Assembly (NCBI GenBank): GCA_965248435.1
Contig: OZ252100.1
Coordinates: 4,480,001 to 4,544,000, forward strand
From: Candidatus Latescibacterota bacterium
GTDB lineage: Bacteria; Latescibacterota; UBA2968; GCA-2709665
Direction of reading: 5' to 3'
Length of the DNA stretch: 64,000 bases
The notes beneath the pieces are model-generated. The model was given only the letters and a program-made list of their open reading frames with translations, had not been told where the DNA came from and made no database searches. A program made the translations under genes and the position numbers. Below, piece after piece: positions 29,613-53,503 of this stretch (position 1 is its first letter; every line of letters starts with the position of its first letter).

Positions 29613-29650
29613 TGAGACATCGGTGTCCCAACCGGGACGCACAGTCCACA
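29613..29650. promoter_or_regulatory. Candidate enhancer (UAS) 1, tandem palindromes
   Basis: TGAGACA-tcgg-TGTCCCA plus weaker CGGGACG-caca-GTCCACA starting 20 bp later. Confidence 0.7.
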
Positions 29651-29748
29651 AAGGAAAGCAATGAGGTCTGTTTCTCGGTCGAACACAATATCTATATATC
29701 TAATTACAATTCAATAATTTATGTTATGTCTTCTTGGATCACGACAAT

Positions 29749-29763
29749 TGGTACGAAGGTTGC
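29749..29763 (+). promoter_or_regulatory. Sigma54 promoter 1
   Basis: TGGTAC-gaagg-TTGC, preceded by an AT-rich tract. Confidence 0.8.
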
Positions 29764-29822
29764 GAATGGGTCTTTTGGAAAGTGTTCGTGTCCAGGCAGG
29801 TTTGGCTCTAAGGAGGTTCGAT

Positions 29823-30350
29823 ATGCAGCCGCAGAGAGTTTTTCACAACAATCCACGCGTACGGATGGACAAGGCACAGGTAGATGTCCTCGATGTGAGT
29901 ACCCAGTGTTCCTACGCCTGCGTGGAAAAGGTGGCCGGCTTGGTACAAAAAGTCGCCACGTGGATCGATATGCCCAATGAAGACAAGCAGGCTGTGGTGA
30001 AAGCCGTTACGGAGGCCGTGCAGAACGCGATTTGTCACGGAAACCGCGAAGGTGAGAGCAAAATGATTCGCGTTCGGATCCAGACCGCACCCTCCGAAAT
30101 CACCGTTTTTGTGAGGGATGACGGAAAAGAGTTTGAGGTCGAGGCGGTGCCGGATCTCATTGATCCGCAGCATCGGAATAGCCCTCACGGACGGGGCATG
30201 AATGCGCTTATGGACGATGTGAAATTCTTCTCATTGGGCAAGGGGGGGTCGTTGGTCAAAATGACGAAGCGATTCATCCCGCAGGAGGTAATAGCTCAGT
30301 CAAAAGGTTGTGGAAGGCGAAGAAAGGAGGTAGAGTTGGTTTGTCTGTGA
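29823..30350 (+). CDS. RsbW-like anti-sigma factor / HATPase_c protein
   Basis: AVTEAVQNAICHGN, VRDDG..F, HGRGM; RBS AGGAGG. Confidence 0.85.
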   Translation: MQPQRVFHNNPRVRMDKAQVDVLDVSTQCSYACVEKVAGLVQKVATWIDMPNEDKQAVVKAVTEAVQNAICHGNREGESKMIRVRIQTAPSEITVFVRDDGKEFEVEAVPDLIDPQHRNSPHGRGMNALMDDVKFFSLGKGGSLVKMTKRFIPQEVIAQSKGCGRRRKEVELVCL

Positions 30351-30571
30351 AAGTGGACCAAAGAGGAGATCTGATCGAACAAGCCGTGCAGGACATTATG
30401 ATGGGCCGGTTTAATGTTGTGGAGCTAATCAAAATGTACGGGGACGAAGTGGGGCTTAAGCTGGCCAATATTTTGTCAGCATTTAGGTTCGGAATGCTTC
30501 CCAGCGCGCGAGTTTCCGATCTGATTCACGAGAATATCGTGTCCTTCAGTAGAGAGGTCTCCCGTGTCTGA
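30347..30571 (+). CDS. Small hypothetical protein
   Basis: GTG overlaps the upstream stop, RBS AAGGAGG upstream, coupled to the next gene. Confidence 0.45.
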   Translation: MKVDQRGDLIEQAVQDIMMGRFNVVELIKMYGDEVGLKLANILSAFRFGMLPSARVSDLIHENIVSFSREVSRV

Positions 30572-31643
30572 CAGCTTGCTCGTCGTCGTCACGTTTATTC
30601 TTCTGTCTTTCATCCCGTTGTTTCCCCTCGGCCACTATTTTCGGAAGAGGCGGAGGCATCAAAAAAATGCTACACGGAAGTACGGAGTTATTCAGCGACT
30701 CGGGGAAGAAAAGGGATTGAATCAGACGGAGCTGGGGGCGGCTCAGCGCATGGCAAGAGCAGCTAGGATCCCGGCTACTACAAAGCTACTGAGGTCGGTC
30801 CGCGTCTTTGATCGGGGGATGGCGTCCTGGATGTCAAGAGTCCAGCAAATGTCCTGGCTCGAGATCGATAGGGAGGTAGAGGTGCTTAGGGCACTCAGAG
30901 AAAAGCTGGGGTTTCGCTACCTGCCTCCCGAGGAGCCGCCATCCTCGACCCGGGAACTTGAACTGGATCAAAGCCTCTACTTCCTTGCCCGAGGGAACAA
31001 GGGGCTTCGGGTGCTGTCTGCCCCTGTTGTCGACCTGGACGACTTGGCCATTCGGACTGAGGCTTTCAGGGAGGGTGGCCGCCCCGTTCGTTTCCCGAAG
31101 GGACACGAAATGTGGCTCTTCTTCTGGCCAGAATCCGGCGGCGAATGTCGGTTCAAATCGAAAGTCCTGAAAGAGGTGGCACGGCCGATGCCATATCTGG
31201 TGCTCAATCACGGAGACGGGGTGATAATCAATAGGGCCAAGGAATTCTTTACCTGCGATTTGGACGTAGAGTTGATTGCGGAGCGAGTGCCGGCCTCGAA
31301 AGTCGGTGGGGTCCAACCTTCCCAGATCCTTTTCCAGAAAGGACAACATATAGAATCGCTGCCTGTGAGACTCATTCAACTCAGCGGCAGCGGGTTCGTC
31401 GTTTCCAAGGATGCAGGCGTCGGATTAGGGGACATCATCCGGCTTAGCTGTAACGTTGAATCGATGTCGTTTTTGGACGAGTTGGTTGGAATCGCCGAGA
31501 AGGAGGTCGGCTCTGGCGTCAGGTTTCGATTTGTGAAACTGGCGACGGGGGAGAGAGAAGAGATACTTGACTATATCACACCGCGAGTAAAGGCCACGAC
31601 CACTTCAAGAGGTCGTATGGCCCGATTGGCCCCTGACCGCTGA
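30564..31643 (+). CDS. Membrane-anchored YcgR/PilZ-like protein with degenerate motifs
   Basis: N-terminal TM; CRFKSKVL..PYLVLNH (YcgR-N-like); LSGSG and GVRFRF..L...ERE.I..YI PilZ-like tail. Confidence 0.5.
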   Translation: MSDSLLVVVTFILLSFIPLFPLGHYFRKRRRHQKNATRKYGVIQRLGEEKGLNQTELGAAQRMARAARIPATTKLLRSVRVFDRGMASWMSRVQQMSWLEIDREVEVLRALREKLGFRYLPPEEPPSSTRELELDQSLYFLARGNKGLRVLSAPVVDLDDLAIRTEAFREGGRPVRFPKGHEMWLFFWPESGGECRFKSKVLKEVARPMPYLVLNHGDGVIINRAKEFFTCDLDVELIAERVPASKVGGVQPSQILFQKGQHIESLPVRLIQLSGSGFVVSKDAGVGLGDIIRLSCNVESMSFLDELVGIAEKEVGSGVRFRFVKLATGEREEILDYITPRVKATTTSRGRMARLAPDR

Positions 31644-31723
31644 TCGGCTTGGCTACTCTTTGATCCCTCAAAGAAGCCATAGACGAAGAGCTGATTCCAG
31701 AAAACGAGAATCTAGATGAAATG

Positions 31724-31752
31724 AACCGTCCGAAGAGCCGGGCGGTTTTTTC
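31724..31752 (+). terminator. Intrinsic terminator
   Basis: AACCGTCC/GGGCGGTT stem followed by a T tract. Confidence 0.55.
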
Positions 31753-31773
31753 TATTTGATCGGTTGATCGGTG

Positions 31774-31811
31774 TGGGACGTGCGCCGACTTGGTGAGACA
31801 GTCCTGTCTCA
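31774..31811. promoter_or_regulatory. Candidate enhancer (UAS) 2
   Basis: Perfect palindrome TGAGACA-gtcc-TGTCTCA (31794-31811) plus a TGGGACG half-site 20 bp upstream. Confidence 0.75.
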
Positions 31812-31905
31812 CTTCATCGGTAAATCGTTGGGTTTTCCGAGAAAGTGTCATACATATATTGTTGTTTATCAATGTGATAGTGAAATTTGACCTGGATCAG
31901 CAAAC

Positions 31906-31920
31906 TGGCATAGACATTGC
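31906..31920 (+). promoter_or_regulatory. Sigma54 promoter 2 (porin-yceI-nxr operon)
   Basis: TGGCAT-agaca-TTGC. Confidence 0.85.
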
Positions 31921-32118
31921 GTAAAAAAGTAAGTGTGGCTGATTTACGACCAACCAATCAGAAAGTCCTATTAATACAGTTCGAGCGAAAGGGGGTTGGC
32001 GCGGATGATAGCGGTGTCTGAGGCAGGTCGCTCAGTCTTGAGAAATCCTTTTGACTCGATGGCCTGCCTGTCGAAGAAAAACCTGGCCTTCAAAGGAGGC
32101 CAAGAAGGAGGTGCCACC

Positions 32119-33465
32119 ATGAAACTCTCAAATGTAGACCATGCGAAGGCCTCAGCTGCCAGCGATCCAGGCTCGCAGATTAGGGGGCACGCCGCTCGTT
32201 GGGTCCGTCAGTTCAAAGTCGGGGTGGTTATGATGTTGATTCTCGGTCTGGGATGGTCAGGGACGCAAGCCTGGGCCCAAACCCATAATTATAAATCGGA
32301 TAAAGGCATCAAGATTTCAGAATTCGACGGAATGAAACTTTACATGGATTTAAAGACCGTCGGAAGGTTCCAGTCGTTGGACCACGAAGGGGTATTTGTT
32401 GGTGGGAAAGAAACGCTGGGACTCCCGTCCGGATTTCAGACGGCCTGGGGAAATCTGGGGTTTCTGGCGGATTATGACGGTAAGGTCGAGGTCTTCTTCG
32501 AACTCTACCTGAGCAGCCGGCCACATCCCGAAAAGGTTTATGGACACGAGGGCTATCTGCTGATCCGTGGTATACCGGAGAACCTCACCACCGGACCTGT
32601 TGCGTCCCTGTTCAATGCGGTTGATTTCAAGGCGGGTCACTTCGAGATCGATTATGGAGATCACCGCTACCGGCGATCGGACAATGCGCGGGTGCAGAAA
32701 AACCCATTGATCGGAAACTACATCATAGATCCGAAGACGGTAGAAATCGGGGTAGAAGTGGCCACGGAACCCAACCGTTTCAATCTTCTGATGGGTGTTG
32801 GGAGTGGAGGTACCACAGAGAAATTCAAGAAGGGAACAGGCCTAAGTTTTCACGGCAAGCTCTGGGGTGATATTACTAAGTCCCTTAGGGCTTCAGGGTC
32901 CTTTTACCGCGTGGATCACTCCGGAAACAAGGTCCAATTTACTGGGAGCTGGAGCAATCTCTTTTCCGGACACCGGAGTGGAGGGCCCTATAGCGGTGTT
33001 CTCGCTGGTGGAAACGCTCCTGGGCAGGTGATGCCCGGTGCTGGACAGAAGGTCACCGCAACCCAGTTTGATGTGACGTGGGGTGTGGGTTCGTTGGAGC
33101 TCTACAGCCATTACGGGTGGATGCGAGACGCTGACATCAACGGCTCGGATTCCGGGTCACCCGAGGAAAGCTGGGCATACTACGCGGCAGAATCCACTTA
33201 CCGTATTACGTCGAACCTCCATGCCGCCATCCGTTATAGCGGGGCCGACGCGAACAAACTCAACGGGATTTCCTCCAAAGGCCGCATTGAGCGGATTCAG
33301 ATTGGCGGCGGATTCTGGCTGACGGAAAACATGCTTGCCAAAGTGGAATATGTGCATCAGAGATGCAACAATTTCACGGACTCAGACGGCAAGGTCGGCG
33401 GCGTAGATATCTGGATGGATCCTGTTTTTAGCGGCGCGATCTCGGAGGTATCCTTCGCCTTCTAG
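32119..33465 (+). CDS. Outer-membrane beta-barrel (porin-like) protein
   Basis: Signal peptide (AWA/Q), amphipathic strands, C-terminal Phe; YLSSRPH, FEIDYGD..RRSDNA..NP.IGNY motifs; RBS AAGGAGG. Confidence 0.7.
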   Translation: MKLSNVDHAKASAASDPGSQIRGHAARWVRQFKVGVVMMLILGLGWSGTQAWAQTHNYKSDKGIKISEFDGMKLYMDLKTVGRFQSLDHEGVFVGGKETLGLPSGFQTAWGNLGFLADYDGKVEVFFELYLSSRPHPEKVYGHEGYLLIRGIPENLTTGPVASLFNAVDFKAGHFEIDYGDHRYRRSDNARVQKNPLIGNYIIDPKTVEIGVEVATEPNRFNLLMGVGSGGTTEKFKKGTGLSFHGKLWGDITKSLRASGSFYRVDHSGNKVQFTGSWSNLFSGHRSGGPYSGVLAGGNAPGQVMPGAGQKVTATQFDVTWGVGSLELYSHYGWMRDADINGSDSGSPEESWAYYAAESTYRITSNLHAAIRYSGADANKLNGISSKGRIERIQIGGGFWLTENMLAKVEYVHQRCNNFTDSDGKVGGVDIWMDPVFSGAISEVSFAF

Positions 33466-33576
33466 ATCTCCTTGGTCTGCGGAGTCTGTGCAGAGTTGCT
33501 GGATGCCGCAGACCACATTCGGATAGGTCTTTTCAAACCGCCTTGACGATGATGAGAAGGGCGTCATCAAAAGGAG

Positions 33577-34275
33577 ATGATCGTGATGAAAAGACACAAT
33601 GTCGAGATGGTCGGCGTATTCATTCTGCTTCTTACCCATTCCTTACAGGCACAAACCTGGATCAGGTTTGAAGGGGTACCGGAAGAAAGCAGGGTCACGA
33701 TTGAGGGGACGTCTACTCTACACGACTGGACCGTCGAAAGCGAGAGCATCAAGGGGTTCTTGGAAATCCAGAAGGATGCTGATGACGACGCACTGTGGAA
33801 AGGGGAATCTGGACCAATGCGTGTGAAGATGCGCGCTAATGTTCACGTAGAGATCGTGGTCCGTTCCCTGAAAAGCGGCAAAGGGGACATGGACAAGAAG
33901 ATGTACAAAGCCTTGAAAGATAGCGAACATCCCAAAATCGAATACCGTCTAACCGAGGCGATATGCAAGGGGAGCAAGAAGATACGAGATGCCCGATTGT
34001 CATCAGTTGAGTTTGACACCAGGGGTGAATTGACAGTGGCGGGAGTAACTCTGCCGATCGAGATGGCCGTGATAGTAGACCGTATAGGCAAAGATCAATT
34101 GATAACCAAGGGGGAGACTTTTCTGAAGATGAAGGACTTCAAGATTAAACCACCCAAGGCCATGCTGGGCATGATCCGAACAGGTAATGACATCAAAATA
34201 TCCTTTGAATGGATGACGAAGTTGCCCGTGGAAACCACACAAACGGTAGGAATATCTCAGTCGGGAGACGCATAA
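33577..34275 (+). CDS. YceI-family lipid/polyisoprenoid-binding protein
   Basis: S.VTIEGTSTLHDW, SLKSG..MD..MYKALK...P.I.Y, G.LTVAGVT, M.DF.I.PP. Confidence 0.9.
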   Translation: MIVMKRHNVEMVGVFILLLTHSLQAQTWIRFEGVPEESRVTIEGTSTLHDWTVESESIKGFLEIQKDADDDALWKGESGPMRVKMRANVHVEIVVRSLKSGKGDMDKKMYKALKDSEHPKIEYRLTEAICKGSKKIRDARLSSVEFDTRGELTVAGVTLPIEMAVIVDRIGKDQLITKGETFLKMKDFKIKPPKAMLGMIRTGNDIKISFEWMTKLPVETTQTVGISQSGDA

Positions 34276-34276
34276 A

Positions 34277-34966
34277 GTGAGAAATCCCAAACGCGTTCTG
34301 GAAGGGTTCATCATCCTGCTGGCATCTTTCCCTCTGCTGGCAATGGCATCTGAGCAAAACCTATTTGTGATTGGGTCCGATAGTGAGATGCATCTGCAAG
34401 GGCGCGCGACGCTTCGCAAATGGCGATTCGAAAGTCACGAGGTGACGGGATTTGTAAAACTCGAAGCGACTCCTGAGGATCTCAAGCTGATGATTCAAAG
34501 TGTTGAAACGGCTCTCCGAAGCGGGGTGGAAGTAATCTTGCAAGACTTGGGCCTACAGATGTGCAACTCTCCTCGGGCCTTAGTGACCGTTCCAGTGGGG
34601 TCTCTTGCGAACCGAAGTTCTGCAATGACACGAGATATGTACAAAGCCCTGAAGAAGGAGCAATTTCCAGTTATAAAGTACACATTTTCCAGATTGATAG
34701 ACGTCAGGGTGATACCGGGTGCCGATACGTCCATCACTCGTCTTAGTCTGACTACGGAGGGTGTTCTGGAGATCGCCGGGGTCCGAAAGTTCATAGAGAT
34801 GGATGTTCTGGTCGAACACGATAAGAACCGATTCAAAGTATTTGGTGAGAAACGTGTGAAGATGACTGATTTTGGAATTGATCCGCCATCACAATTCTTC
34901 GGTCTGATCCGTGTGCGCGACGAGGTGGATGTGATCTTTGACCTGGTCGTGGGGACGGATTCTTAA
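34277..34966 (+). CDS. YceI-family protein (second copy)
   Basis: MTRDMYKALK..FP.I.Y, G.LEIAGV, MTDFGIDPP..FFGLI.V. Confidence 0.85.
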   Translation: MRNPKRVLEGFIILLASFPLLAMASEQNLFVIGSDSEMHLQGRATLRKWRFESHEVTGFVKLEATPEDLKLMIQSVETALRSGVEVILQDLGLQMCNSPRALVTVPVGSLANRSSAMTRDMYKALKKEQFPVIKYTFSRLIDVRVIPGADTSITRLSLTTEGVLEIAGVRKFIEMDVLVEHDKNRFKVFGEKRVKMTDFGIDPPSQFFGLIRVRDEVDVIFDLVVGTDS

Positions 34967-34975
34967 TGAAGTTGC

Positions 34976-36634
34976 ATGATGTTCCAGTGGAGGAGGGAGT
35001 CTCCAATGAGATGTGCAGTGCGTACCAGACCCGCAGGAGGAAAGTTACTTCTTTATAGCGGCATCTTACTTGGTCTGTCCCTGCTTTGTGTACAGACCTC
35101 CACCGGGGAGGGACGTTCTCTACAGCCTTCAAAGGATCTGAAAGCCTCTACTCGAGCCGTAGAATTGGGCAAGGCCACTTACCAGAGACAATGCGCTGCC
35201 TGTCACGGGCTGGAGGGGCGGGGTGACGGCGAAGCGGCCTTCCTGCTCTATCCCAAGCCCCGGGACTTCGTCGCGGCTCGCTACCGTCTCGTCTCGACGT
35301 GGGAGCGTGTGCCGACGGATGAGGACCTCTTCACCACCATCTCCCGCGGGATGCCAGGGTCGGCAATGCCGTCCTGGGCCCACCTGCCCGAGGAGACCCG
35401 ATGGGGGCTGGTTCACTATGTGAAATCTCTTGCCGAGAAGTCCTGGGCAGTGAAGCCGGCGACCGAACCAAAAGAGGAAGGTGCGTCGGGGACCGGTGTC
35501 ATCGCTGTTCCGCCCGAGACTGCTTACACGGCGGAGACGAAGAAGCAGGCCGCCTACTTTTTCAAGGAGGCCTGTGCGGGGTGCCACGGGCTGGAAGGTC
35601 GGGGCGACGGTGTGCAGCGCCAGGTGGACAGTGAAGGGTATGAAACGCGGCCGAGGGATCTGACGCGCGGGATCTACAAGGGTATCCCGGACCCGGAGGC
35701 GGTTTACCGCAGGATTGTCGCGGGGCTGCCCGGTACGCCGATGCCGATGAGCGACTGGGCCTACGGGAAAGATGCCTGGGACCTCGTCCACTACGTAATG
35801 AATATGTCCAGTGATCGGGAGCGCTCACGCAACGAAATGTTCAAGTTTGAAATCCACGCCGCGAGGGTGGCCAAACTCCCGGACCATCCCGATTCGTGGA
35901 TCTGGAATCGCGCCACGCCGGTCAACCTCCATCTGATGCCGCTCTGGTGGCGGGACGACCGGACCGAGGAGGTGACGGTGCGCGCACTGCACGACGGCAG
36001 GGAACTGGCCCTGCTCCTGGTCTGGCGGGATGAGACGCACGACCATACGACCATCCGCCCGCAGGACTTCAGAGACGCCGCTGCCGTGCAGTTCTCCCTG
36101 GATTCGGATCCACCCTTTTTCGCGATGGGGGAGCGGGGGAAGTTCGTGAACATCTGGATGTGGAAGTCTGAGCGGCAGGCGGACCTGCAGCCGGCGTATC
36201 AGGACCTGGAGAAGGTCTATCCGAATATCGGGATCGATTCCTACCCCAACTTCCAGAGGTCGCCCCTGGAACAGCCGATGCGACACGCGCTGACGCTGGA
36301 ATCGGATTCGACCTACGTGACGGGATGGGGGGCGGGAAACATCGTTTCGGACCCGACGTGGAAGCGAGCCGCGGAGGACCTCCGGGCCCAGGGCTTCGGC
36401 ACCCTGAAGGCCCGACCTCGGTTCGACCAGGCCGTGGAGGCCGATGGGGTCTACCGCGCGAACGCCTACAGGGTGGTTTTCCGCCGTGCGTTCAAACCGA
36501 AGGGGAAGGGGGCGGCGGCGCTGAAGAAGGGGACGACAGTGCCGGTGGCCTTTGCGGTTTGGGACGGGAGCGCGGGGGACCGGGACGGGAAGAAGTCGGT
36601 GACGATCTGGCAGGATTTGAAGATTTCGCCCTGA
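34976..36634 (+). CDS. Diheme cytochrome c fused to an ethylbenzene-dehydrogenase-gamma-type heme b domain (candidate NxrC/gamma subunit)
   Basis: CAACH and CAGCH with GxxMP distal ligands; FRDAAAVQF, FAMG, VAFAVWDG...RDGKK. Confidence 0.88.
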   Translation: MMFQWRRESPMRCAVRTRPAGGKLLLYSGILLGLSLLCVQTSTGEGRSLQPSKDLKASTRAVELGKATYQRQCAACHGLEGRGDGEAAFLLYPKPRDFVAARYRLVSTWERVPTDEDLFTTISRGMPGSAMPSWAHLPEETRWGLVHYVKSLAEKSWAVKPATEPKEEGASGTGVIAVPPETAYTAETKKQAAYFFKEACAGCHGLEGRGDGVQRQVDSEGYETRPRDLTRGIYKGIPDPEAVYRRIVAGLPGTPMPMSDWAYGKDAWDLVHYVMNMSSDRERSRNEMFKFEIHAARVAKLPDHPDSWIWNRATPVNLHLMPLWWRDDRTEEVTVRALHDGRELALLLVWRDETHDHTTIRPQDFRDAAAVQFSLDSDPPFFAMGERGKFVNIWMWKSERQADLQPAYQDLEKVYPNIGIDSYPNFQRSPLEQPMRHALTLESDSTYVTGWGAGNIVSDPTWKRAAEDLRAQGFGTLKARPRFDQAVEADGVYRANAYRVVFRRAFKPKGKGAAALKKGTTVPVAFAVWDGSAGDRDGKKSVTIWQDLKISP

Positions 36635-36646
36635 GGAGACAGTGCC

Positions 36647-39600
36647 ATGGCTGATGATGCGAAGCTGGAATCGGGCGGCGTTCCAAGGCGTGAGTTCCTG
36701 CGCTGGCTGGGTCTCGGCACCGGTTCGGCCGTGATGGGCGTGGGCGTGCCGTTCAGGCTGCTGGCCGCCGCCCGTCCCGACGAAAATCCACTCGCCGGTT
36801 CCATCGACCGGGGCTGGGAAGGGATCTACCGCGATCAATACCGCTACGACCGACACTTCGACTGGGTCTGTTCGCCCAACGACACCCACGCCTGCAGGGC
36901 CCGGGCCTACGTGCGGAACGGCATCGTGACCCGACTGGGGTCCACCTACGACTATCAGGACTATGCTGATCTCTACGGCAACAAGGCCACGTCGAACTGG
37001 AACCCCAGGCAGTGCGCAAAAGGCTACACCTTTCATCGTGTGCTCTACGGGCCCTACCGGCTGCGGCACCCGATCGTGCGCAGGGGCTGGAAGGCTTGGG
37101 CCGATGCCGGGTTTCCTGATCTGACGCCTGAGCTCCGGTCGAAGTACAAGTTCGACAGCCGGGGAGAGGACGAGTTTGTTCAGATCTCCTGGGATGACGT
37201 ATCCCACGACATCGCAAAGGCGCTGGTATCAATCTCTACGCGATACAGCGGGGAGGAGGGCAAACGGCGTCTGCTGGAACAGGGCTACCAGCCCGAGATG
37301 GTGGACGCCATGCACGGGGCGGGCACACGGAGCATCAAGATGCGGGGGGGGATGGGGCTTCTGGGGGTCATCGGGAAGTACGGGATGTATCGGCTGAACA
37401 ACTCGCTGTCTCTGCTCGACTCCAGGATCCGGGGCGTGTCGCCGGACAAGGCCCTCGGGGGTCGCAACTGGTCCAACTACACGTGGCACGGAGACCAGGC
37501 CCCGGGACACCCCTGGGTGCACGGGTTGCAGACGTCTGACTGCGACTTCAACGATCTTCGCTTCTCGAAGCTGATCATCATGGATGGAAAGAACCTGGTG
37601 GAGAACAAGCTGCCTGATTCCCACTGGTTCATCGAGTGCATGGAGCGGGGGGCGAAGATCGTCGTGATTGCCCCGGAGTACGGGCCGCCTTCCACCAAGG
37701 CCGACTACTGGATCCCGATTCGTCCGGCCACGGACACGGCGCTCTGGCTGGGCATTACGAAGCTGATGATCGACCGGAAGTGGTATGACGAAGCGTTCGT
37801 GAAAGGGTTCACCGACTTTCCCCTGCTTGTGCGAACGGATACACTCAAACGCCTGAGGGCCCACGAGGTCTTCCCCGATTACAAATCGACCCTTTCGCCC
37901 GACGGGCCTTCCGTGAAGATCCAGGGCCTCAAGCCGGAACAGCACGAAAAGCTGGGGGATTATGTGATCTGGGACGAAGGCCAGGACGGTCCACGGGCCA
38001 TCACGCGAGACGAAGTCGGAAAGCGCATGGCTGAGAACGGACATCGTCCGGCGCTTTCAGGAAAGTTCAAGGTCCGGCTGGTAAACGGCGAGGAGGTCGA
38101 GGTCGGGACGCTGTGGACGCTATATCAGACGCACTTGAAAGACTACGATCTGGATACCGTGGTCGACATCACCCACACCCCGAAAGAGCTGGTGGTACAG
38201 CTTGCGAAGGACATCGCAACGATGAAACCGGTGGCCATCCACCAGGGAGAGGGGATCAATCACTGGTTCCACGCCACGGAGATGAACCGATCGGCCTACC
38301 TGCCGTTGATGCTGACCGGGAACATCGGGAAGCCGGGCGCGGGAGGCCACACTTGGGCAGGCAATTACAAGGCCGCGCTCTTCCAGGGGTCGCCCTGGAC
38401 GGGGCCCGGATTCAAGGGGTGGATCGGCGAGGATCCGTTCGAGCCGAACCTGAATCCGGATGCCCCCGGGAAAGAGGTTCCGGTGCGCCTGACCTGCAAG
38501 GATGAGGAACCGGCCTACTGGAATCACGGGGATCAGGCCCTGATCGTGGACACGCCAAAGTTCGGGCGGAAGAACTTCACCGGCAACACCCACATGCCCA
38601 CGCCGACGAAGGCCATCATCTTTAACAATGTGAACCTGATCAACAATGCCAAGTGGGCCTACGGGATGATCAAGAACGTAAACCCGAACATCGAGATGAT
38701 CGTCTCGATGGACATCCAGATGACGGCCTCGATCGAATACGCCGATATCGCCCTGCCGGCCAACTCGTGGCTCGAGTTCGAGGGACTGGAAGTCACAGCC
38801 TCCTGCTCCAACCCCTTCCTCCAGATCTGGAAGGGCGGCATCCCCCCGGTCTTCGACAGCAAGGACGACCTGAGGATCCTTGCGAACATTGCCAAGGCCC
38901 TGGGTTCAGTGACCGGCGACCGGCGCTTCATCGACTATTTCAAGTTCGAGCATCAGGGAAAGCGTGACATCTATCTGCAGCGCCTCCTCGACACCTGCAC
39001 GACCACGCGGGGATACAAACTCAGCGACATCATGACGGGCAAATTCGGGCCGCCGGGCGGCTGCTTGATGAACTTCCGAACCTACCCGCGCATCCCGTTC
39101 TACGAGCAGGTACACGACGACGAGCCCTTTCACACCGACACGGGACGGATGCACGCCTACTCCGACGTGCCAGAGGCCATCGAGTACGGAGAGAACTTCA
39201 TCGTCCACCGGGAAGGCCCGGAGGCCACGCCCTACCTGCCGAACGTGATCGTGAGTTCCAACCCCTACATCCGGCCGGAGGATTACGGCATCCCGCAGGA
39301 CGCGGAGCACTGGGACGATCGCACGATCCGAAACGTGATGCTCCCCTGGTCCAAGGTGAAGAAGACGAAGAACTTCCTATGGGAGAAAGGGTTCCAGTTC
39401 TACTGCCTGACACCGAAGACGCGCCACCGGGTGCACAGCGGCTGGTCGAACGTGGACTGGCACATGCTCTACGATTCGAACTTCGGTGACCCCTATCGGC
39501 TGGACAAGCGGGCGCCCTCAGTGGGCGAACACCAGCTCCACATCAACCCTCAGGCGGCGCGGGATCTCGAGATCAACGACGGAGATTACGTCTACCTGGA

Positions 39601-40117: not shown

Positions 40118-40142
40118 AAGACTTCGTCTGAAGGAGCCGAAA

Positions 40143-40469: not shown

Positions 40470-40508
40470 GGATCTCGAATCGAAACTGGCCACGAGGAGG
40501 GGAGTGCG

Positions 40509-41777: not shown

Positions 41778-41789
41778 GCGGAGAGAGAG

Positions 41790-43516: not shown

Positions 43517-43940
43517 GTTCTATGACCTCCCGAGAACGAATTCAGAGGGTGTTGGCAGCGAGGTGCCCGACCGTGTGCCGTTTCACGACGCCTACTGGGC
43601 GACGACGATCGAGCGGTGGCGTCGCGAAGGCATGCCGCCAGACAGATCTCCTGAAGAATACTTCGGGAGTGAAATCGTGCAGATCGCGGGCGACTATTCG
43701 CTGCAAGTTCCATTTCAGATGATCGAGGAGACGGATCGATATCGCGTCGGGAATATCGATGTTCGAAACCTGGCTGGAAGCCGTGAGGCGATCGAATCGG
43801 AGATCCGGTCGAAGGTGACCGCGGGGGGAGCTGGGGGCGGATACATCTATCATTCAGATCACTCCGTCCCCAAAGATGTGTCGTTGGAGAACTATCGATT
43901 CGCGCTGAAGATGCTCGAGAAGTACGGGCGTTACGATTGA
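43513..43940 (+). pseudogene. Uroporphyrinogen-decarboxylase-family (MtaA/CmuA-like) remnant with frameshift and large internal deletion
   Basis: MTSRERI..(shift)..EVPDRVP N-terminus joined directly to the GNID...GGGYIYHSDHSVP C-terminus; ~140 aa against ~350 expected. Confidence 0.75.
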
Positions 43941-43957
43941 GGCGTGAGGAGGACCGT

Positions 43958-44599: not shown

Positions 44600-45666
44600 A
44601 GCATCCCGAAATAGTAGAAGGGCAGGAAGTCGGAGATCACGCGGGCGATGAGGGCCAGGAGCGTACAGAGCGCGAGCGTGAGCATGGTTTTCGAGTTCTT
44701 CTGCCAGATCGCTTCGAATCCGCAGTGAGCCGCAGTGACACGTGTCGCGATGATGACGGTCAGCGTCGCGAACCCCCCGATGAAGGTCAGGTGGAGGGCC
44801 GGGATTTCGTAATCTGGAAAAAGGCCCGCCACCCAGAGGCCTGCGATTACAAACCAGAAGGAGAGCCAGAGAAGGCGCAGGTGCCAGAGCGGACTGGCGG
44901 GTCGCTGGAATAAAGGGAGTGTGCGCAGCAGGTGGACGGTGACGACAAAGGCCCGCAGGCTTCTACCCGCGGACTCTAAAACCCCCGACTCGATCCAGAA
45001 GCTGACGAACAGTGCGAGTGCCAAGAGCAGGTTGATGCCGAGGGGTGTGTGTCTGTGGCGTGACGCGGCGTCGTTCGCACTAAGCAGACGCCCGCCGAGG
45101 TAGGGGCCGACCCCCATGATGAAGCAGAGAAGCATGCCCTGTTCCACCATGCGGTTTCCAAGCTTGACAAATCCATACAAGGGCCACAGGATGAGCAGGC
45201 CCCCGACCAGGGCGTGGATCAGGCCGGCCGGGACGAAGATGAATGTCGGGGGAGGATCGTGCTTTCGTTCGGGGAATCGACGGGCGGCAAAGAGGAGCAG
45301 GTGGAGCGCTAGAAGAAGGAAGCCGACTTCAGACATGCTCCAGTTCTCCACGTATAGCTCAGCCGCAGCGAACAGGAGCAGGGCCAGACCCAGGAGGAGC
45401 TCCCACGGACGGGCACGTCGAACTTCCATGAATCTGGGTAGGGCCGTCATCAGAAACCCGGTTGCGAACCCCATCTCAAACCCTTGGATCATCAGGAGGC
45501 CGTGGTAGTTGCAAGAGAAGGTCTCGGTTAGGCCCGAATAGTACCACAGCCAGTGCGATACACCGACAACGCCGCAGAGCAAGCCGGCAGGGAAAAAAAG
45601 CCGAAAGGGTTCATCACAGAGGACCTCCAGAAAGGGGGTCCTTTTCTCGTTCGAATGGGTGACCAA
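44503..45666 (-). CDS. nnrS: NnrS-family membrane protein (start approximate)
   Basis: EPFRLFF, HGLLMIQGF..GFLMTALP, LHLTFIGG; many TM helices. Confidence 0.85.
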   Translation of the reverse strand: MVTHSNEKRTPFLEVLCDEPFRLFFPAGLLCGVVGVSHWLWYYSGLTETFSCNYHGLLMIQGFEMGFATGFLMTALPRFMEVRRARPWELLLGLALLLFAAAELYVENWSMSEVGFLLLALHLLLFAARRFPERKHDPPPTFIFVPAGLIHALVGGLLILWPLYGFVKLGNRMVEQGMLLCFIMGVGPYLGGRLLSANDAASRHRHTPLGINLLLALALFVSFWIESGVLESAGRSLRAFVVTVHLLRTLPLFQRPASPLWHLRLLWLSFWFVIAGLWVAGLFPDYEIPALHLTFIGGFATLTVIIATRVTAAHCGFEAIWQKNSKTMLTLALCTLLALIARVISDFLPFYYFGMLHIGAAFWLIGVIAWGVVLLPKMSPRRISDEV

Positions 45667-45823
45667 GTGCGCTCCGAATGGCGAGGGATTTGAAGGTGCT
45701 GATGTGTCAAGATAACCGTTCCGGCGGTCCGCGGACAAGCGTTTGGGCCGACCAGCGGGTGGACAGACGACTGGGATTTGCCACAGGCAAATCAACCCGT
45801 TCCCTGGAAAGGGAGATTAGACC

Positions 45824-45852
45824 TGGGACACGCTCGCCCCACCGGTGCGACA
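45824..45852. promoter_or_regulatory. Candidate enhancer (UAS) 3
   Basis: TGGGACA-cgct-CGCCCCA plus a TGCGACA half-site 22 bp later. Confidence 0.55.
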
Positions 45853-45955
45853 TCCACCTTACGATTCCCGCTTTCCAGTGAAGATTTCGCTTCTGTGCCT
45901 TGCCATAACTTATTTAATAACAAACTGATAATTAGTACGACGTCGGCGACGTCCG

Positions 45956-45970
45956 TGGCACGTCATTTGT
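45956..45970 (+). promoter_or_regulatory. Sigma54 promoter 3
   Basis: TGGCAC-gtcat-TTGT (one mismatch at -12), preceded by an AT-rich tract. Confidence 0.65.
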
Positions 45971-46041
45971 AAGGTGTTCATTAGATGGGTTTCGAATTGG
46001 GGGGGGTCCGGGTCTTCAAGGCGCAAAACGAAGGAGATTCT

Positions 46042-46155
46042 ATGGCTGACCTCGTCGCGATTGCGGAAAGTGTCATCAAGGGAGAGGCGCCCAAGGTGGA
46101 GGCGCTGGTTCAGGAGGCCCTGGACAATGGCGTTTCCGTCGGAGACGTCCTGCCT
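46042..46155 (+). pseudogene. 5' fragment of a corrinoid (B12-binding cap domain) protein
   Basis: RBS AAGGAG; MADLVAIAESVIKGEAPKVEALVQEALDNGVSVGDVL, then similarity is lost. Confidence 0.65.
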
Positions 46156-46211
46156 GAGAAATCATCATCTCAAAAGACAGTCTTATTGGCTTGGAGAGGA
46201 GGTGAACAGGA

Positions 46212-46793
46212 ATGGTCACCGAGACCTACATCATTGTCGCCGCATTCATCCTCGGGGCGTTCTTTTTCTTATGGCGGAATGTCATCAAAACCTACCAGAG
46301 GTTTCGCGGCAAGATGCTGGTGATGTGTCCCGAGACGCATCAAGCAACCGGCGTTGAGGTAGATGAAAGACATGCCGCCCTATCTACCGCCCATGGTGGG
46401 CCGGATCTGAGATTAAAGGCGTGTACGCGCTGGCCGGAGCATGAAAATTGTGGTCAGGGGTGTCTGAATCAGATCGAACTCTCTCCAGACGGATGTCTGG
46501 TCCGGACGATGTTGACGGATTGGTACCAGGGGAAGTCTTGTATTTCTTGTGGAAGGGAATTCCCAAAGATTGACTCCTATGACCATAAAGCGGTTTTCGG
46601 ATATGACAAGAAGCCCGCGCTGAGGAGCCCCGAGGGTGCGATTGTGGAATGGCTCGAGGTGCCAGTGGAAACGCTTCCCGAAGTTCTCTCGACGCATAAA
46701 CCGGTATGCTGGAATTGTTTGATTGTGCACAGGTTTAGAAACGGGCACCCAGAGCTCGTGGTGGACCGCCCGTGGAAGCGAAGTCAATTCTGA
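46212..46793 (+). CDS. Membrane-anchored Cys-rich protein of unknown function
   Basis: RBS GGAGGTG; N-terminal TM; CPET, CTRWP, CGQGC, C, CISC, CWNC. Confidence 0.75.
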   Translation: MVTETYIIVAAFILGAFFFLWRNVIKTYQRFRGKMLVMCPETHQATGVEVDERHAALSTAHGGPDLRLKACTRWPEHENCGQGCLNQIELSPDGCLVRTMLTDWYQGKSCISCGREFPKIDSYDHKAVFGYDKKPALRSPEGAIVEWLEVPVETLPEVLSTHKPVCWNCLIVHRFRNGHPELVVDRPWKRSQF

Positions 46794-46923
46794 ATCGTAT
46801 TCTGTCGCCTCGGCCGCCAGAATGAACGCGCCCAAGGGCTTATCGGACTCCAACTGTCTGGAGTTGTGGTTGAACGTGAAGTACCAAGCGGTCGGTGTCG
46901 CAGGTTAAGGTAGGGAGGCGAAC

Positions 46924-47201
46924 GTGAAACTTTCCGTAACAGCACTGGCCCAAGTGCAGCCATCCTGTGGGGAGCAGTGGTCCTCTTCCTGGGGACCGCG
47001 AATGCTATCTGGCCAACCTATGCGAATGCGTTTCTGCAGATCATAGACTCGATCTATCCGGGGTATCACGCTGGAGATGGGGCCTGGAGCGTCGTGGTGG
47101 GCACGCTTTATGCAATTGTAGACGGGGGCATAGGCGGGTTCCTGTTTGCGTGGATCTACAACAGATTTGCGGTTGAAGGAGAGACCGTGAGCGTAAATTG
47201 A
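46924..47201 (+). pseudogene. Small membrane protein with a 1-nt deletion near 46950
   Basis: RBS GGGAGG plus GTG KLSVTALA, continuing in another frame as SAAILWG...SIYPGYH...FAWIYNRF; length 278 nt. Confidence 0.6.
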
Positions 47202-47376
47202 TCCCCGATTTCCGGTGGATTCTGTCGATGTGTGAAAATCGAAGCGAAAATGTGTTTGTGCCAGGACAGTCCGAATAGGGACCTACGGAAAAACCGGAAT
47301 CGATTTCACCGAAGCGACAGAAGGCGTACACAGCAGGACGAAGTTATTCCCGTGTTCGTTCTAAGGAGCGTCTATC

Positions 47377-48267
47377 GTGCCCAAAGGAAAAGTGAAAGGC
47401 AGAAATGCTGGCCTGTCACCCTACTTTCGTGAGGTTCGGCGGACGGAACTATTGAGTCGGGAAGATGAAGTGCGATTGTCTGCCAGGATCCGCCGCGGAG
47501 ACACAGAGGCCCGAAATCAGCTTGTTATGGCGAACCTCCGATTCGCTTTGAAGATGGCCATGCGATATCAGGGATTTGGACTTCCCTTAGAAGATCTAGT
47601 CAGCGCCGCCAATTACGGGCTCCTGCGGGCAGCAATCAGGTTCGATGGCCTGAATGGCGTAAGGTTTATCACCTACACTGTCTGGTGGATACGGCAGTCA
47701 CTTCAGCAGGCTGTGGCTGCAGAGCCTCGTACCATCAGGTTGCCAGGACACGTCGTGGAATTACTTTCCAGGATCAACAAGGTTTCCGCGTCGCTGCAAA
47801 TTCAGTTAGAAAGACAGCCCTCGAGAGATGAGATCGCCTCCGGATTAGACGTCCCACGTCGAAACGTACAGCGTGCTATGGATGCGGCGCCGGAGCCGCA
47901 TTCACTGGACGAGGAGATCGGGAGTTCGTTCGACGGCAGCACTCGGTTGATAGAAGTCTTAAAAGACCCAGCGAGTAAGGACCCCTCTGAAGAACTGGAC
48001 CGTCTGCTCCTCAAGGAGGACGTTCGGAAGGCGCTGGAAGTTCTGAAGGGCCGGGAGGTGGAGGTGATCAAACGGTCTTATGGGCTGGACGGCAGGCCGA
48101 TGGTTAGCCTCGCAGAGATTGGACGAAGCATGCATCTGAGTCGAGAGCGTGTTCGGCAGATAAGAGTTGCGGCCCTGGAACGGCTTCGGAGGGAGTTCGA
48201 GTCAAATGGACTGGGCAACGATCTGGAACCAGAAGGACATGCTGAAGTAGCGCAGGGGGCGTGTTGA
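47377..48267 (+). CDS. Alternative sigma70-family factor (RpoD/RpoS-like, no region 1.1)
   Basis: LVMANLRF, DLV...GL..A..RFD, F.TY.VWWIRQ, TIRLP, LSRERVRQI. Confidence 0.92.
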   Translation: MPKGKVKGRNAGLSPYFREVRRTELLSREDEVRLSARIRRGDTEARNQLVMANLRFALKMAMRYQGFGLPLEDLVSAANYGLLRAAIRFDGLNGVRFITYTVWWIRQSLQQAVAAEPRTIRLPGHVVELLSRINKVSASLQIQLERQPSRDEIASGLDVPRRNVQRAMDAAPEPHSLDEEIGSSFDGSTRLIEVLKDPASKDPSEELDRLLLKEDVRKALEVLKGREVEVIKRSYGLDGRPMVSLAEIGRSMHLSRERVRQIRVAALERLRREFESNGLGNDLEPEGHAEVAQGAC

Positions 48268-48338
48268 ACCGCGCCGACCGGATATTGACGGAATCCTGAA
48301 TTCTCCCCCTGTGTGTTCACCCATATCCTTGGATTTCG

Positions 48339-48364
48339 AGCGTCTAAATGGCGCTTCTTTTTTT
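48339..48364 (+). terminator. Intrinsic terminator
   Basis: AGCGTC/GGCGCT stem followed by a long T tract. Confidence 0.55.
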
Positions 48365-49643: not shown

Positions 49644-49644
49644 A

Positions 49645-52397: not shown

Positions 52398-52435
52398 CCC
52401 GAGGTTTGAGAATCGAGTAATGGAGGAGTCCAAAC

Positions 52436-53323
52436 ATGAACGCCGAACTCATCCGCGGGATCATCCCTGCGATGATTACCCCGATGACCGAGGAAGAGGA
52501 GCTGGACAGGGAGGGATTCAAACGGCTCATCGACCATATGATCGACCGAGGCGTGCACGGAATCTTCACGGTGGGAACGGCCGGCGAATTCTGGGCCCTG
52601 AGTGTGGAGGAGAAGCGACAGATCTACGGATGGACGGTGGAGGATGTGGATGGCCGCGTGCCCGTGTATGCAGGCACCTGTGCCAATACGACTCGCGAGG
52701 CGGTTCTGCTGGCCGAGATCGCCCAGGAGGCCGGTGTGGACTGCCTGTCGGTGCTGACGCCAAATTTTATTTTGCCGAATCAGGAGGAGATGTTCTCGCA
52801 CTACGGGGCGGTCGCGAAGGCGGTGGACCTCCCGATCCTGCTCTACGACAACCCCGCGCGAACGGGGAACAAGCTGTCCGTGGATCTGGTCGTCCGGTTG
52901 GCGGAGCGGTTCGAGAATATCGTCGGGATCAAGGACAGTTCAGGAGACTTCGCACAAACGCTGGAATACCTACGCCGCACCCCCGAAGGGTTCAAAACGA
53001 TCATGGGAAGAGATTCGCTGATCTACTCGTCTCTGACACACGGAGCCGCGGGCGCGATCGCAGCGACGGCGAACATCGGGCCCGACCTGGCTGTCGGGAT
53101 CTACGAATGCTACATCAAGGGGGACCTGGAGGGGGCGATGGCGTTCCAGCGGCGTCTCGCTCCCCTGCGTCTCGCGTTTTCAATCGGGACCCAGCCGGCC
53201 ATGTTAAAAGCCGGAGCCGAACTGGCCGGGCTTCCGGGTGGACCTCCGCGGAGTCCTGTCAGCCCCCTGACGGAGGATGAGCGCGAACAGCTTCAGAAGA
53301 TCATCGAGGGTGTAGAAATCTGA
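52436..53323 (+). CDS. DapA/NanA-family aldolase
   Basis: GIIPAMITP, GTAGEF, LYDNP.RTG, GIKDSSG. Confidence 0.9.
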   Translation: MNAELIRGIIPAMITPMTEEEELDREGFKRLIDHMIDRGVHGIFTVGTAGEFWALSVEEKRQIYGWTVEDVDGRVPVYAGTCANTTREAVLLAEIAQEAGVDCLSVLTPNFILPNQEEMFSHYGAVAKAVDLPILLYDNPARTGNKLSVDLVVRLAERFENIVGIKDSSGDFAQTLEYLRRTPEGFKTIMGRDSLIYSSLTHGAAGAIAATANIGPDLAVGIYECYIKGDLEGAMAFQRRLAPLRLAFSIGTQPAMLKAGAELAGLPGGPPRSPVSPLTEDEREQLQKIIEGVEI

Positions 53324-53343
53324 ATGCGAATAAAGTTCTCTTT

Positions 53344-53381
53344 AGGGACAGGCCCGTCCCAGGTGGGACGCCCCTTTCACA
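53344..53381. promoter_or_regulatory. Candidate enhancer (UAS) 4, tandem palindromes
   Basis: AGGGACA-ggcc-CGTCCCA and TGGGACG-cccc-TTTCACA, starts 20 bp apart. Confidence 0.65.
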
Positions 53382-53488
53382 AAATGACACCAGCTCAGGG
53401 TTCTGATGGGCTCAATACAGTCCATATAAAACGTTGTTTTATAATATGTTAAAGCTAAAATGAGAAGATTTCATAAATGAAAAGGGCA

Positions 53489-53503
53489 CGGCATAGAGTT
53501 TGC
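53489..53503 (+). promoter_or_regulatory. Sigma54 promoter 4
   Basis: CGGCAT-agagt-TTGC, preceded by an AT-rich tract. Confidence 0.7.

Follow-up and report, generated by a model that had tools for sequence, protein, structure and literature searches.

The window analysed here is a 64-kb stretch (G000:C1:4480001-4544000, numbered below from its first nucleotide) of a Candidatus Latescibacterota genome, G000 (5.67 Mb in two contigs, 56.6% G+C), and its subject is a group of four sigma-54-type (-24/-12) promoters that share one palindromic operator. These promoters stand before four operons, one of which encodes a predicted nitrite oxidoreductase (NXR), and the first of them lies just past the genes for a haem-PAS sensor kinase and an NtrC-type regulator. 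All results are computational and sequence-based. Thirty-one open reading frames (ORFs) of the window were scanned against Pfam, and genome-wide motif scans covered contig C1 (5,656,476 bp), the second contig, C2, being 17 kb long. G-numbers other than G000 denote relatives, which were taken from a near-relative set of 41 genomes and a phylum-wide set of 168 genomes.

Four predicted promoters with one putative operator

All four promoters were found in intergenic DNA on the plus strand and showed the same order of parts, namely an upstream activating sequence (UAS), an A+T-rich spacer and a sigma-54 box. At P1, the palindrome TGAGACATCGGTGTCCCA starts at 29613 and the box TGGTACGAAGGTTGC (TGGTAC-N5-TTGC) occupies 29749-29764, at a distance of 136 bp; at P2, the palindrome TGAGACAGTCCTGTCTCA starts at 31794 and the box TGGCATAGACATTGC (TGGCAT-N5-TTGC) occupies 31906-31921, at 112 bp. 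P3 combines the palindrome TGGGACACGCTCGCCCCA, starting at 45824, with the box TGGCACGTCATTTGT (TGGCAC-N5-TTGT) at 45956-45971, 132 bp away, and P4 the palindrome AGGGACAGGCCCGTCCCA, starting at 53344, with the box CGGCATAGAGTTTGC (CGGCAT-N5-TTGC) at 53489-53504, 145 bp away. The consensus operator was TGRGACA-N4-TGTCYCA (18 bp), and each copy is accompanied by a second, weaker site. In UAS 1 (29613-29650), a perfect palindrome (29613-29630) is followed by a weaker site at 29633-29650 (CGGGACG at 29633, +20), and in UAS 2 (31774-31811) the half-site TGGGACG at 31774 (-20) precedes a perfect palindrome (31794-31811). UAS 3 (45824-45852) consists of a 12/14 palindrome (45824-45841) and the half-site TGCGACA at 45846 (+22), and UAS 4 (53344-53381) of a 12/14 palindrome (53344-53361) and the half-site TGGGACG at 53364 (+20).

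The boxes of P1, P2 and P4 have the GG-N10-GC form expected of sigma-54 promoters from the generally known consensus, and the four boxes lie 58-78 bp before the initially assigned start codons. Strong intrinsic terminators immediately precede UAS 1 (29572-29596, plus strand, after the regulator gene, with a 9-pair stem and then a T run) and UAS 2 (31723-31748, plus strand, ending operon 1). Sigma-70-like matches were few in 28000-61000, and none fell inside any of the four promoter regions. Over 40 bp, the spacers reached an A+T content of 75-88% at all four promoters. An IHF-like site, defined by at most one mismatch to a consensus taken from general knowledge, was detected in each spacer: at 29709-29721 (plus strand, one mismatch, in an 88% A+T tract) in P1, at 31867-31879 (plus strand) in P2, at 45918-45930 (minus strand) in P3 and at 53427-53439 (minus strand) in P4. 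The whole window holds 34 such sites on both strands, so that their presence in 4/4 spacers corresponds to a binomial probability of 1e-4. G000 possesses nine HU/IHF-family genes and a single copy of rpoN (one Sigma54_DBD match, E 9.5e-59). With sites in tandem, spaced by 20-22 bp and lying 112-145 bp upstream of the box, and a bend-type site between, the layout is that of an enhancer used by an enhancer-binding protein (EBP). An earlier note on this DNA had listed the four palindromes and boxes and second sites or half-sites 20 bp from sites 1, 2 and 4; each was recovered with the letters and positions claimed, and the second site of UAS 3, which it had omitted, completes the set.

The operator is rare in the genome. 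A 14-position pattern of the palindrome had two perfect matches on C1, both inside the window, and the number of matches rose to three at 13/14 or better, 40 at 12/14 or better and 431 at 11/14 or better. The window holds 5 of the 40 matches at the 12/14 level (binomial 9e-5). Meanwhile, the box pattern alone occurred on C1 at chance level (93 and 88 per strand, compared with about 85 expected). The co-occurrence of the two elements was examined genome-wide, as the earlier note had proposed: the 100-149 bp downstream of the 40 sites contained four boxes, which were those of P1-P4, whereas every other 50-bp bin within 1 kb held none or one, and the sites having a box 112-145 bp downstream were precisely the four. 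Motif discovery on the four upstream regions, proposed likewise, was carried out as an enumeration of dyads (5-mers, spacers 0-14), in which GGGAC-N6-GTCCC and TGGGA-N8-TCCCA alone were present in at least three of the four. When four 200-bp segments were drawn at random from the genome, some such dyad turned up in 69 of 2000 draws; the enumeration by itself is modest support, and the weight is carried by the 14-position matches.

When the thresholds were loosened (box at least 8/11, palindrome at least 11/14), the distance histograms became flat and represented noise. The sole extra candidate kept from the loosened scan was a possible fifth site at C1:5067110 (minus strand), where AGAGACACGGCCGTCCGA stands 82 bp before CGGCACGGGGCTTGCA, with four paralogous lipoprotein-like ORFs in tandem behind it. 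Within the window, a further sigma-54-like box (14898, minus strand) was rejected, having neither a gene close downstream nor the motif.

Regulator, sensor kinase and proposed target operons

The regulator P0001 (28121-29512, plus strand) is of the NtrC type. Its Pfam domains are Response_reg, Sigma54_activat, AAA_lid_14 and HTH_8, its translation contains GAFTGA, and the combination of a REC domain, a GAFTGA-bearing AAA+ domain and a Fis-type helix-turn-helix (HTH), here with the helix GIDRRSLHRLLAKH, is that of group I bacterial EBPs. In comparison with NCBIfam, the best equivalog was AtoC (493 bits, cut-off 714) and the NtrX model gave 410 bits (cut-off 600); among the best 25 of the 123 families matched, P0001 was under the curated cut-off of all named equivalogs of the NtrC family (AtoC, NtrC, GlrR, ZraR, NtrX, NorR and others). 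Of the approximately 21 G000 proteins that carry a sigma-54 interaction domain, P0001 alone has this HTH, the next best protein being 41% identical over the last 64 residues. UAS 1 lies 100 bp past the stop codon of the regulator gene, and all four operator sites lie within 24 kb.

Immediately upstream of the regulator gene, a sensor kinase is encoded in two pieces. The first is a 255-aa ORF (26355-27122, plus strand; Pfam PAS), the N-terminal sensor part; within the second PAS domain, a 1-nt frameshift at 27092-27098 (plus strand; a GGG run near 27095) cuts it off. The second is a 346-aa ORF (27076-28116, plus strand) with the Pfam order PAS_3-HisKA-HATPase and its own ATG at 27076. The frame ending in '...PGMAYRCRNDMHWTM' / '...GMAYRCRNDMHWTM' resumes as 'EFVSEGCLELTGY...' in the next frame. 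In phmmer searches, the PAS ORF matched the haem domains of FixL (8js5_A, 1d06_A and 1dp6_A) with E values of about 1e-35, followed by DosP, and its stretches 'PEPYHSEHDGY' and 'IGIGREV' aligned with the FixL haem domains, the former bearing a His that we take to be the proximal haem ligand. The kinase is most likely cytoplasmic, as no membrane-associated domain appeared in the Pfam scan.

In G037 and G038, a single ORF joins the haem PAS directly to HisKA-HATPase, and by comparison with these two the second PAS (PAS_3) is an insertion seen only in the G000 kinase. The regulator gene has a haem-PAS gene next to it in 11 further genomes (G037, G038, G120, G121, G131, G150, G152, G163, G157, G161 and G105). 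The first scan for this adjacency (3/29) had reached 1.5 kb from the HTH, which was too narrow, and was redone with 4 kb upstream, giving 6/17. The partner kinases of G081 and G079 have a sensor domain of the Tll0287-like family instead, which is known to bind haem c. G000 contains no other FixL-type kinase. A FixL-like haem PAS 67% identical to the window copy is found at G000:C1:2816585-2817625, fused to an HD-GYP-type domain.

The proposed target operons all lie on the plus strand. Operon 1 (29823-31643), behind P1, contains the gene for an RsbW/SpoIIAB-like kinase, an ORF of 87 aa and the gene for a 359-aa protein in which a weak PilZ-like match was seen. Operon 2 (31996-44599), behind P2, encodes a porin-like protein, two YceI proteins, an NxrC-like protein, NxrA, NxrB, a NarJ-like chaperone, two unknown ORFs and MobB. 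NxrA (36647-40117) matched the Kuenenia NXR-A chain 7b04_B over its full length (1789 bits, residues 13-1154), and the NxrC-like protein combines two cytochrome c domains with EB_dh (Pfam). Judging from these domains (NxrA, Fer4_11, EB_dh with cytochrome c, Nitrate_red_del), the gene set of a periplasmic NXR of the Nitrospira/anammox type appears complete. A gap of about 390 bp separates nxrA from nxrB (40117-40509).

The nnrS gene (44503-45795, minus strand; Pfam NnrS) is divergent from operon 3, with its start codon 29 bp from UAS 3, and no sigma-54 box was found upstream of it on the minus strand. Operon 3 (46042-48267), behind P3, starts with what is left of a B12-binding protein gene, after which come the genes for a Cys-rich protein of 193 aa, a membrane protein of 74 aa and an RpoS-like sigma factor. 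A terminator at 48338-48356, past the sigma-factor gene, most likely marks the end of the unit, and thus the alginate-export-like porin, the Lon-like protease and DapA beyond it are probably outside. Operon 4 (53626-60447), behind P4, begins with a small Cys-rich protein (53626-53943) and continues with homologues of CusC, CusB and CusA. The first gene lies in the frame 53497-53940 rather than being the ORF 53583-53957, and it probably starts at 53626, 121 bp past the P4 box. The small protein is signal-peptide-like, contains 'CFCW...CHSS...DCCC' and belongs to no Pfam family. The earlier note had placed Cys-rich and sigma-factor genes under P3 and copper efflux under P4. Both kinds of gene are indeed present behind P3, but the first ORF there is the 37-codon stump of a corrinoid-protein gene and the unit is closed by the terminator after the sigma gene; likewise, CusC, CusB and CusA follow P4, but the first gene is the one at 53626-53943, in another frame than 53583-53957.

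An extra palindrome, TGTGACACGCGTGTCGCA (12/14), is located at 54029-54046, between the small Cys-rich gene and cusC. No sigma-54 box was found after it; its role may be auxiliary, or a different regulator may use it as operator.

Operator and regulator in related genomes

The closest orthologues of P0001 were detected in G037 (68% identical), G038 (66%) and G027, G028 and G040 (58-59%), which lie outside the genome family of G000. These came from the genome search; a contig search for related loci was set aside, as the 80 loci it returned were of paralogue level (36-52% identity), the best-named relative among them being a metagenome-assembled genome labelled 'Nitrospirae bacterium'. The same-genus genome G001 had no orthologue (best 41%), no motif site and no NxrA. 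When the HTH was used to search the 168 phylum genomes, 35 matched at E <=1e-12, while none of the 21 other genomes of family f1 did so at this threshold.

The helix GIDRRSLHRLLAKH is common to the G037 and G038 orthologues, and orthologues that keep the helix GIDRRSLHRLL also keep the palindrome, both beside the regulator gene and upstream of sigma-54 boxes. In G037, a perfect TGGGACAGACCTGTCCCA stands 94 bp before TGGCATATGCGTTGCT, ahead of a gene for a 2-oxoacid:ferredoxin oxidoreductase alpha subunit and 2 kb from the regulator, and two more pairs of motif and box precede a radical-SAM/SPASM gene and CBS/MgtE genes. G080, G081 and G079 have the same helix, with tandem sites just past the regulator gene and a box 130-150 bp further on; the tandem pair consists of a strong palindrome and a TGGGGCA...CCACA-type second site in G080 and G081, and of two motif-like sites with a 22-bp offset in G079. 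In G077 and G083, the palindrome is again present past the regulator gene, with no box within the 330 bp examined. Furthermore, the helix and the operator covary: the helix GMNRHRLQRLISKY of G027, G028 and G089 goes with tandem palindromes of the GCCACATGAATGTTCC type, and the helix GTDRRTLQRLISKY of G040 with GCGACAGAGATGTCCC.

The abundance of the motif follows the HTH as well. With at most one mismatch, it occurred 4.41 times per genome in the 27 other genomes that closely match the HTH (reversed control pattern 1.33) and 1.57 times (control 0.98) in 133 genomes without the HTH, which is about a 2.8-fold difference (Mann-Whitney 1e-7, relatedness uncorrected). The same trend was seen within families, namely 5.0 compared with 2.5 in f2 and 3.8 compared with 1.4 in f4. 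On the regulator gene's own contig lie four of the seven motif sites of G161 and two of the four of G037.

To assess the operator as an enhancer elsewhere, all motif sites of five genomes (G079, G163, G093, G081 and G161) were fetched, which gave 46 sites as compared with a single match of the control pattern. A box (at least 9/11, with GG and GC) was present 35-220 bp downstream, on either strand, at 30 of the 46 sites, whereas the controls gave 3/46 at the mirrored upstream position and 4/46 at +400 to +585. The distances from UAS to box bunch at steps of about 11 bp (57/58, 68, 79/80, 90/91, 101-103 and 114-117). This phasing is suggestive only, since random sets reached the strength of the best period, 11-12 bp (R 0.44-0.48), in 42-77 of 5000 trials, and since related promoters do not count as independent cases.

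Several genes of the G000 operons recur at the motif. A B12-binding protein gene is beside it in G093, G161 and G163, two RpoS-like sigma factor genes each in G161 and G163, cusC in G163, and homologues of the RsbW-like and 87-aa proteins in G083; in G081 (L227), a homologue of the small Cys-rich protein follows motif and box next to a CusA homologue. The gene for the 359-aa protein follows the regulator gene in G037 and G038, and its homologues occur on the regulator loci of G084 and G150. First genes behind motif and box in the relatives include those for cytochrome bd oxidase subunit I, CcmE and a dihaem cytochrome c, and further genes in this position encode a FixI/CcoI-like P-type ATPase, a POR subunit, a universal stress protein (Usp), a CCG/Fe-S protein, a SucC/Acl-like ATP-grasp protein and several kinases and regulators.

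NxrA was detected in 9 of the 168 phylum genomes and in 2 of the 41 near relatives. The HTH was found in seven of the nine NxrA genomes, as compared with 21 of the 159 others (Fisher 5e-5, with kin non-independent), the two NxrA genomes without it being G151 and G071. In G038, a single neighbourhood unites nxrCAB-narJ-mobB, nnrS, the PAS-kinase, the regulator, the 359-aa protein and a sigma factor; there the box TGGCATCCAGATTGCG stands before nxrC and is preceded by two TGGGAC half-sites 22 bp apart. In G153 and G151, the perfect box TGGCACACAATTTGCA precedes nxrC by about 0.8 kb and is itself preceded, at 108 bp, by a motif-like site; for G150, the distance to the nearest motif-like site is 328 bp. 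The closest NxrA copies, 80-87% identical, are in other families (G150-G153, G079), while the same-genus genome lacks NxrA; this distribution looks like the horizontal spread of an NXR module. The nxrA homologue of G038 (L113 5794-9277) is in two pieces in different frames that meet near 7993, a break that may be a frameshift or a sequencing error.

Two further observations concern other loci of G000. Another dyad, TGGGGAAA-N-TTTCCCA, stands 113-119 bp before good sigma-54 boxes at C1:1730462, 3400957 and 1814286, and is probably the enhancer of another of the approximately 21 regulators. Near-identical stretches of about 300 bp at C1:2797017 (plus strand) and 4735308 (minus strand), each with an ORF end, a T-rich dyad, TGGCATACGCCTTGC and the start of a small gene, look like a duplicated regulator-promoter cassette.

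Interpretation and comparison with known systems

On these grounds, we consider it likely that the haem-PAS kinase and the NtrC-type regulator drive the four sigma-54 promoters of the 24-kb stretch in response to low oxygen. In the proposed mechanism, low oxygen would activate the cytoplasmic FixL-type kinase (26355-28116), the sign being taken from the known behaviour of FixL, and the kinase would phosphorylate the regulator (28121-29512), dimers of which would bind both the strong palindrome and the weaker site that lies 20-22 bp, or two turns of the helix, from it. An IHF-type protein would bend the A+T-rich spacer and bring the oligomer to the sigma-54 holoenzyme, which the AAA+ ring would touch via GAFTGA, ATP hydrolysis then opening the promoter. 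The targets would be the RsbW-like/359-aa operon, the operon porin-YceI-nxrCAB-narJ-mobB, the Cys-rich protein with the RpoS-like sigma factor, and the small Cys-rich protein with cusCBA. The earlier note had suggested that the regulator at 28121 reads the palindrome, which gained in silico support from its position, the uniqueness of its HTH, conservation, the covariation of helix and operator, and motif abundance; the suggested co-activation of the four promoters is likewise consistent with every in silico test run.

Several observations weigh against this reading. The P3 box is GG-N10-GT, that is, it has the weaker -12 element GT for GC, and the P4 box has CGG at -24 where TGG is expected. 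In the five genomes examined for enhancer function, 16 of the 46 sites had no box at the threshold used, and at 11 of the 17 regulator loci no haem-PAS kinase was found in the DNA examined, two of these stretches being short. The cross-genome statistics take genomes as independent, with relatedness uncorrected. Genomes without the HTH show a small motif excess over the control (1.57 compared with 0.98), and some of them have many sites, G104 for example nine with no control match. In G004 and G006 (L119 and L132, palindrome at 1501), palindromes of the TGAGACAGATTTGTCTCA type stand 112-114 bp before perfect sigma-54 boxes, while the best HTH matches to P0001 there are only 49% and 45% identical, so that another regulator is apparently able to use a very similar site; the gene after the box in G006 encodes a Glu/Leu/Phe/Val dehydrogenase (Pfam), and the partial ORF of G004 is similar at its N-terminus. 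In G000 itself, the kinase is split across two ORFs, and the first ORF past P3 (46042-46152) represents the first 37 codons only of a corrinoid (B12-binding) protein gene, the rest of which is absent in all frames (a full paralogue is present at C1:4721642-4722277). With a kinase frameshift and a remnant target gene, the circuit may be decaying. In addition, rhizobial FixL-type kinases are active when deoxygenated, and this behaviour is transferred here by analogy.

A FixL-type haem PAS in the kinase implies that the signal is probably O2, NO or the redox state. Low oxygen appears the most likely of these because of the haem-PAS domain together with the targets in relatives (bd oxidase, CcmE, FixI-like ATPase, 2-oxoacid:ferredoxin oxidoreductase, radical SAM and Usp), NO or the redox state being less likely. 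A broader alternative holds that the signal is not O2 but NO, CO, nitrite-derived stress, redox, or a metal acting via the second PAS, and that the regulon is an N-oxide or envelope-stress response. Such a view would accord with the presence of nnrS next to the locus in both G000 and G038, with Cus efflux and an anti-sigma/sigma pair as stress-type targets, with the extra PAS_3 of the G000 kinase alone, and with the fact that haem PAS domains also bind NO and CO. The closest solved relatives of the sensor are, however, the O2 sensors FixL and DosP, and the targets in relatives (bd oxidase, FixI-like ATPase, POR and Usp) form a classic low-oxygen set; we thus hold a signal other than O2 to be a minor possibility.

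The second alternative accepts the architecture as real and regards the circuit in G000 as free of signal control or defunct, on a horizontally acquired island that is decaying or being rewired. The split of the kinase indeed means that signal coupling may be altered or lost. Independently built contigs from four runs of one sample were identical over 26001-38281 without gaps, which implies that the frameshift in the second PAS is not a slip of this assembly alone. The truncated B12-binding gene after P3, the lack of any other FixL-type kinase in G000, where the one close haem-PAS paralogue is fused to HD-GYP, and the absence of regulator, NxrA and motif from the same-genus G001 point in the same direction. 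On the other hand, the regulator, the four pairs of UAS and box and the large target genes are all intact, and the kinase ORF keeps its own ATG, PAS_3, HisKA and HATPase and may thus still phosphorylate the regulator. As the four runs derive from one sample, the frameshift may also be a variant local to that population. We judge a defunct or signal-free circuit to be unlikely.

A third possibility is that the palindrome is a real enhancer read by another EBP, of which there are about 20 others, or by a non-EBP factor, while the neighbouring regulator controls something else. Besides the roughly 21 proteins with a sigma-54 interaction domain in G000, the near-identical palindrome and box without this HTH in G004 and G006 and the slight motif excess in genomes without the HTH could be cited for it. 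The position of UAS 1 just past the regulator stop codon with the remaining three sites within 24 kb, the lack of any other G000 protein above 41% identity over the HTH stretch, and the joint change of helix and motif, with a motif count that tracks the HTH within families, all argue for P0001 instead and render a different reader improbable. Chance resemblance, or palindromes of merely structural origin such as hairpins or repeats, can be practically dismissed: the dyad enumeration was only moderately unusual (69/2000) and the box pattern alone is at chance frequency, but the sole two perfect matches in 5.66 Mb are both here, each of the four copies (4/4) comes with a box, with an IHF-like site and with an in-register second half-site, the sequence itself is kept across families with a box at 30/46 sites as compared with 3-4/46 in the controls, and no T run follows the palindromes.

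If the proposed control by the haem-PAS kinase and P0001 is correct, its interest comes from a likely oxygen-type sensor, from the link to NXR in an NXR-poor lineage and from a regulon kept across several families. For NXR, whose regulation is little described, an operator, four promoters, a regulator, a sensor with a known ligand class and a conserved gene set together provide a testable hypothesis. It predicts that these bacteria would deploy NXR within a low-oxygen programme that also includes bd oxidase, POR and Cu efflux, which bears on whether the enzyme acts in situ as nitrite oxidase or as nitrate reductase. The operator offers a handle for reading metatranscriptomes and for building reporters, and the three helix variants with their three operator variants are a small natural data set on the specificity of Fis-type HTH domains. 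More speculatively, and with little confidence on our part, the haem sensor and sigma-54 activator might be the master switch of a horizontally moving module (NXR, NnrS, an RpoS-like sigma factor with an RsbW-like partner, and Cu efflux) for low-oxygen nitrite/nitrate chemistry in a lineage normally without NXR, in which case the G000 frameshift would free NXR from oxygen control, a possible step to aerobic nitrite oxidation.

Among known systems, FixL/FixJ resembles the present one in its sensor. The sensor PAS here is, by sequence, a close homologue of FixL (8js5, 1d06 and 1dp6; E ~1e-35) with aligning haem-pocket stretches, and the targets in relatives overlap the classical low-oxygen set (FixI-like ATPase, high-affinity oxidases). 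The partner of FixL, however, is of the FixJ type, whereas here it is an NtrC-type sigma-54 activator. PAS and kinase form one polypeptide in FixL-type proteins, as they do in G037 and G038 (one ORF), and are split in G000. Furthermore, FixL/FixJ acts through a FixK cascade, whereas direct enhancer control is proposed here. In NtrY/NtrX, a haem-PAS kinase and an NtrC-family regulator control N-oxide respiration at low oxygen. NtrY is membrane-bound, whereas the present kinase is most likely cytoplasmic from its domain content, and P0001 differs from NtrX in being below the family cut-off, with an intact GAFTGA and clear sigma-54 boxes.

In Nitrospira, genes for sigma-54-dependent regulators lie beside nxrAB and differential regulation of NXR has been proposed, with no site, promoter or signal stated in the available part of that report (PMC6606698). 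The present host is not close kin of a lineage with universal NXR, as NxrA occurs in 9/168 phylum genomes. In the main texts of the literature searched, neither this operator nor a pairing of FixL-type kinase and NtrC-type regulator at nxr was described. The remark of the earlier note that the motif was unrecognised stands to this extent, but the heptamer half-site itself has a counterpart in the published UAS of TspR, where the heptamers stand in the opposite order (PMC6335251).

TspS/TspR of Acidithiobacillus caldus is a sigma-54-dependent two-component system located beside the respiratory operon that it controls, with the UAS TGTCCCAAATGGGACA, thiosulfate as the proposed signal and sox as the target (PMC6335251). 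The TspR UAS and the window operator are built from the same heptamers, TGGGACA/TGTCCCA, which are everted with a 2-bp spacer in the former and inverted with a 4-bp spacer in the latter (PMC6335251). The junctions between tandem sites at P1 (TGTCCCA-AC-CGGGACG) and P4 (CGTCCCA-GG-TGGGACG) mimic the TspR element. In the window, by contrast, the sensor PAS is of the haem type, and the 31 ORFs scanned yielded no sox-type domain. In a metagenome scan for the TspR 16-mer, 119 stretches were matched, and five of the 80 examined hold a relative of the regulator. In one alone among the 80 (L322), the 16-mer stands 57 bp before a sigma-54 box beside a regulator with the helix ISRRTFIYRM, which has I-x-R-R-[ST] in common with the window helix.

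NmpRSTU of Myxococcus xanthus combines a haem-dependent kinase and the NtrC-like NmpR with two dyad sites upstream of sigma-54 promoters, and NmpR activates several operons with a presumed role in using oxygen under hypoxia (PMC11841059). The NmpR consensus is given there as GCGCA-N5-TGCGC with sites mostly 14-15 bp apart, in contrast to TGRGACA-N4-TGTCYCA with a 20-22 bp repeat here, and the Nmp system is described as a four-protein phosphorelay (NmpU, the hybrid NmpS, NmpT), in contrast to a single split kinase gene beside the regulator (PMC11841059). No hybrid kinase was present among the ORFs of 26355-31643, and the targets here (NXR, Cus and a sigma factor) differ from those of NmpR. Altogether, the four promoters follow the canonical enhancer architecture of NtrC-type regulators and represent an undescribed member of a well-known kind of system, the nearest described system being NmpRSTU in its logic and TspR in its operator.

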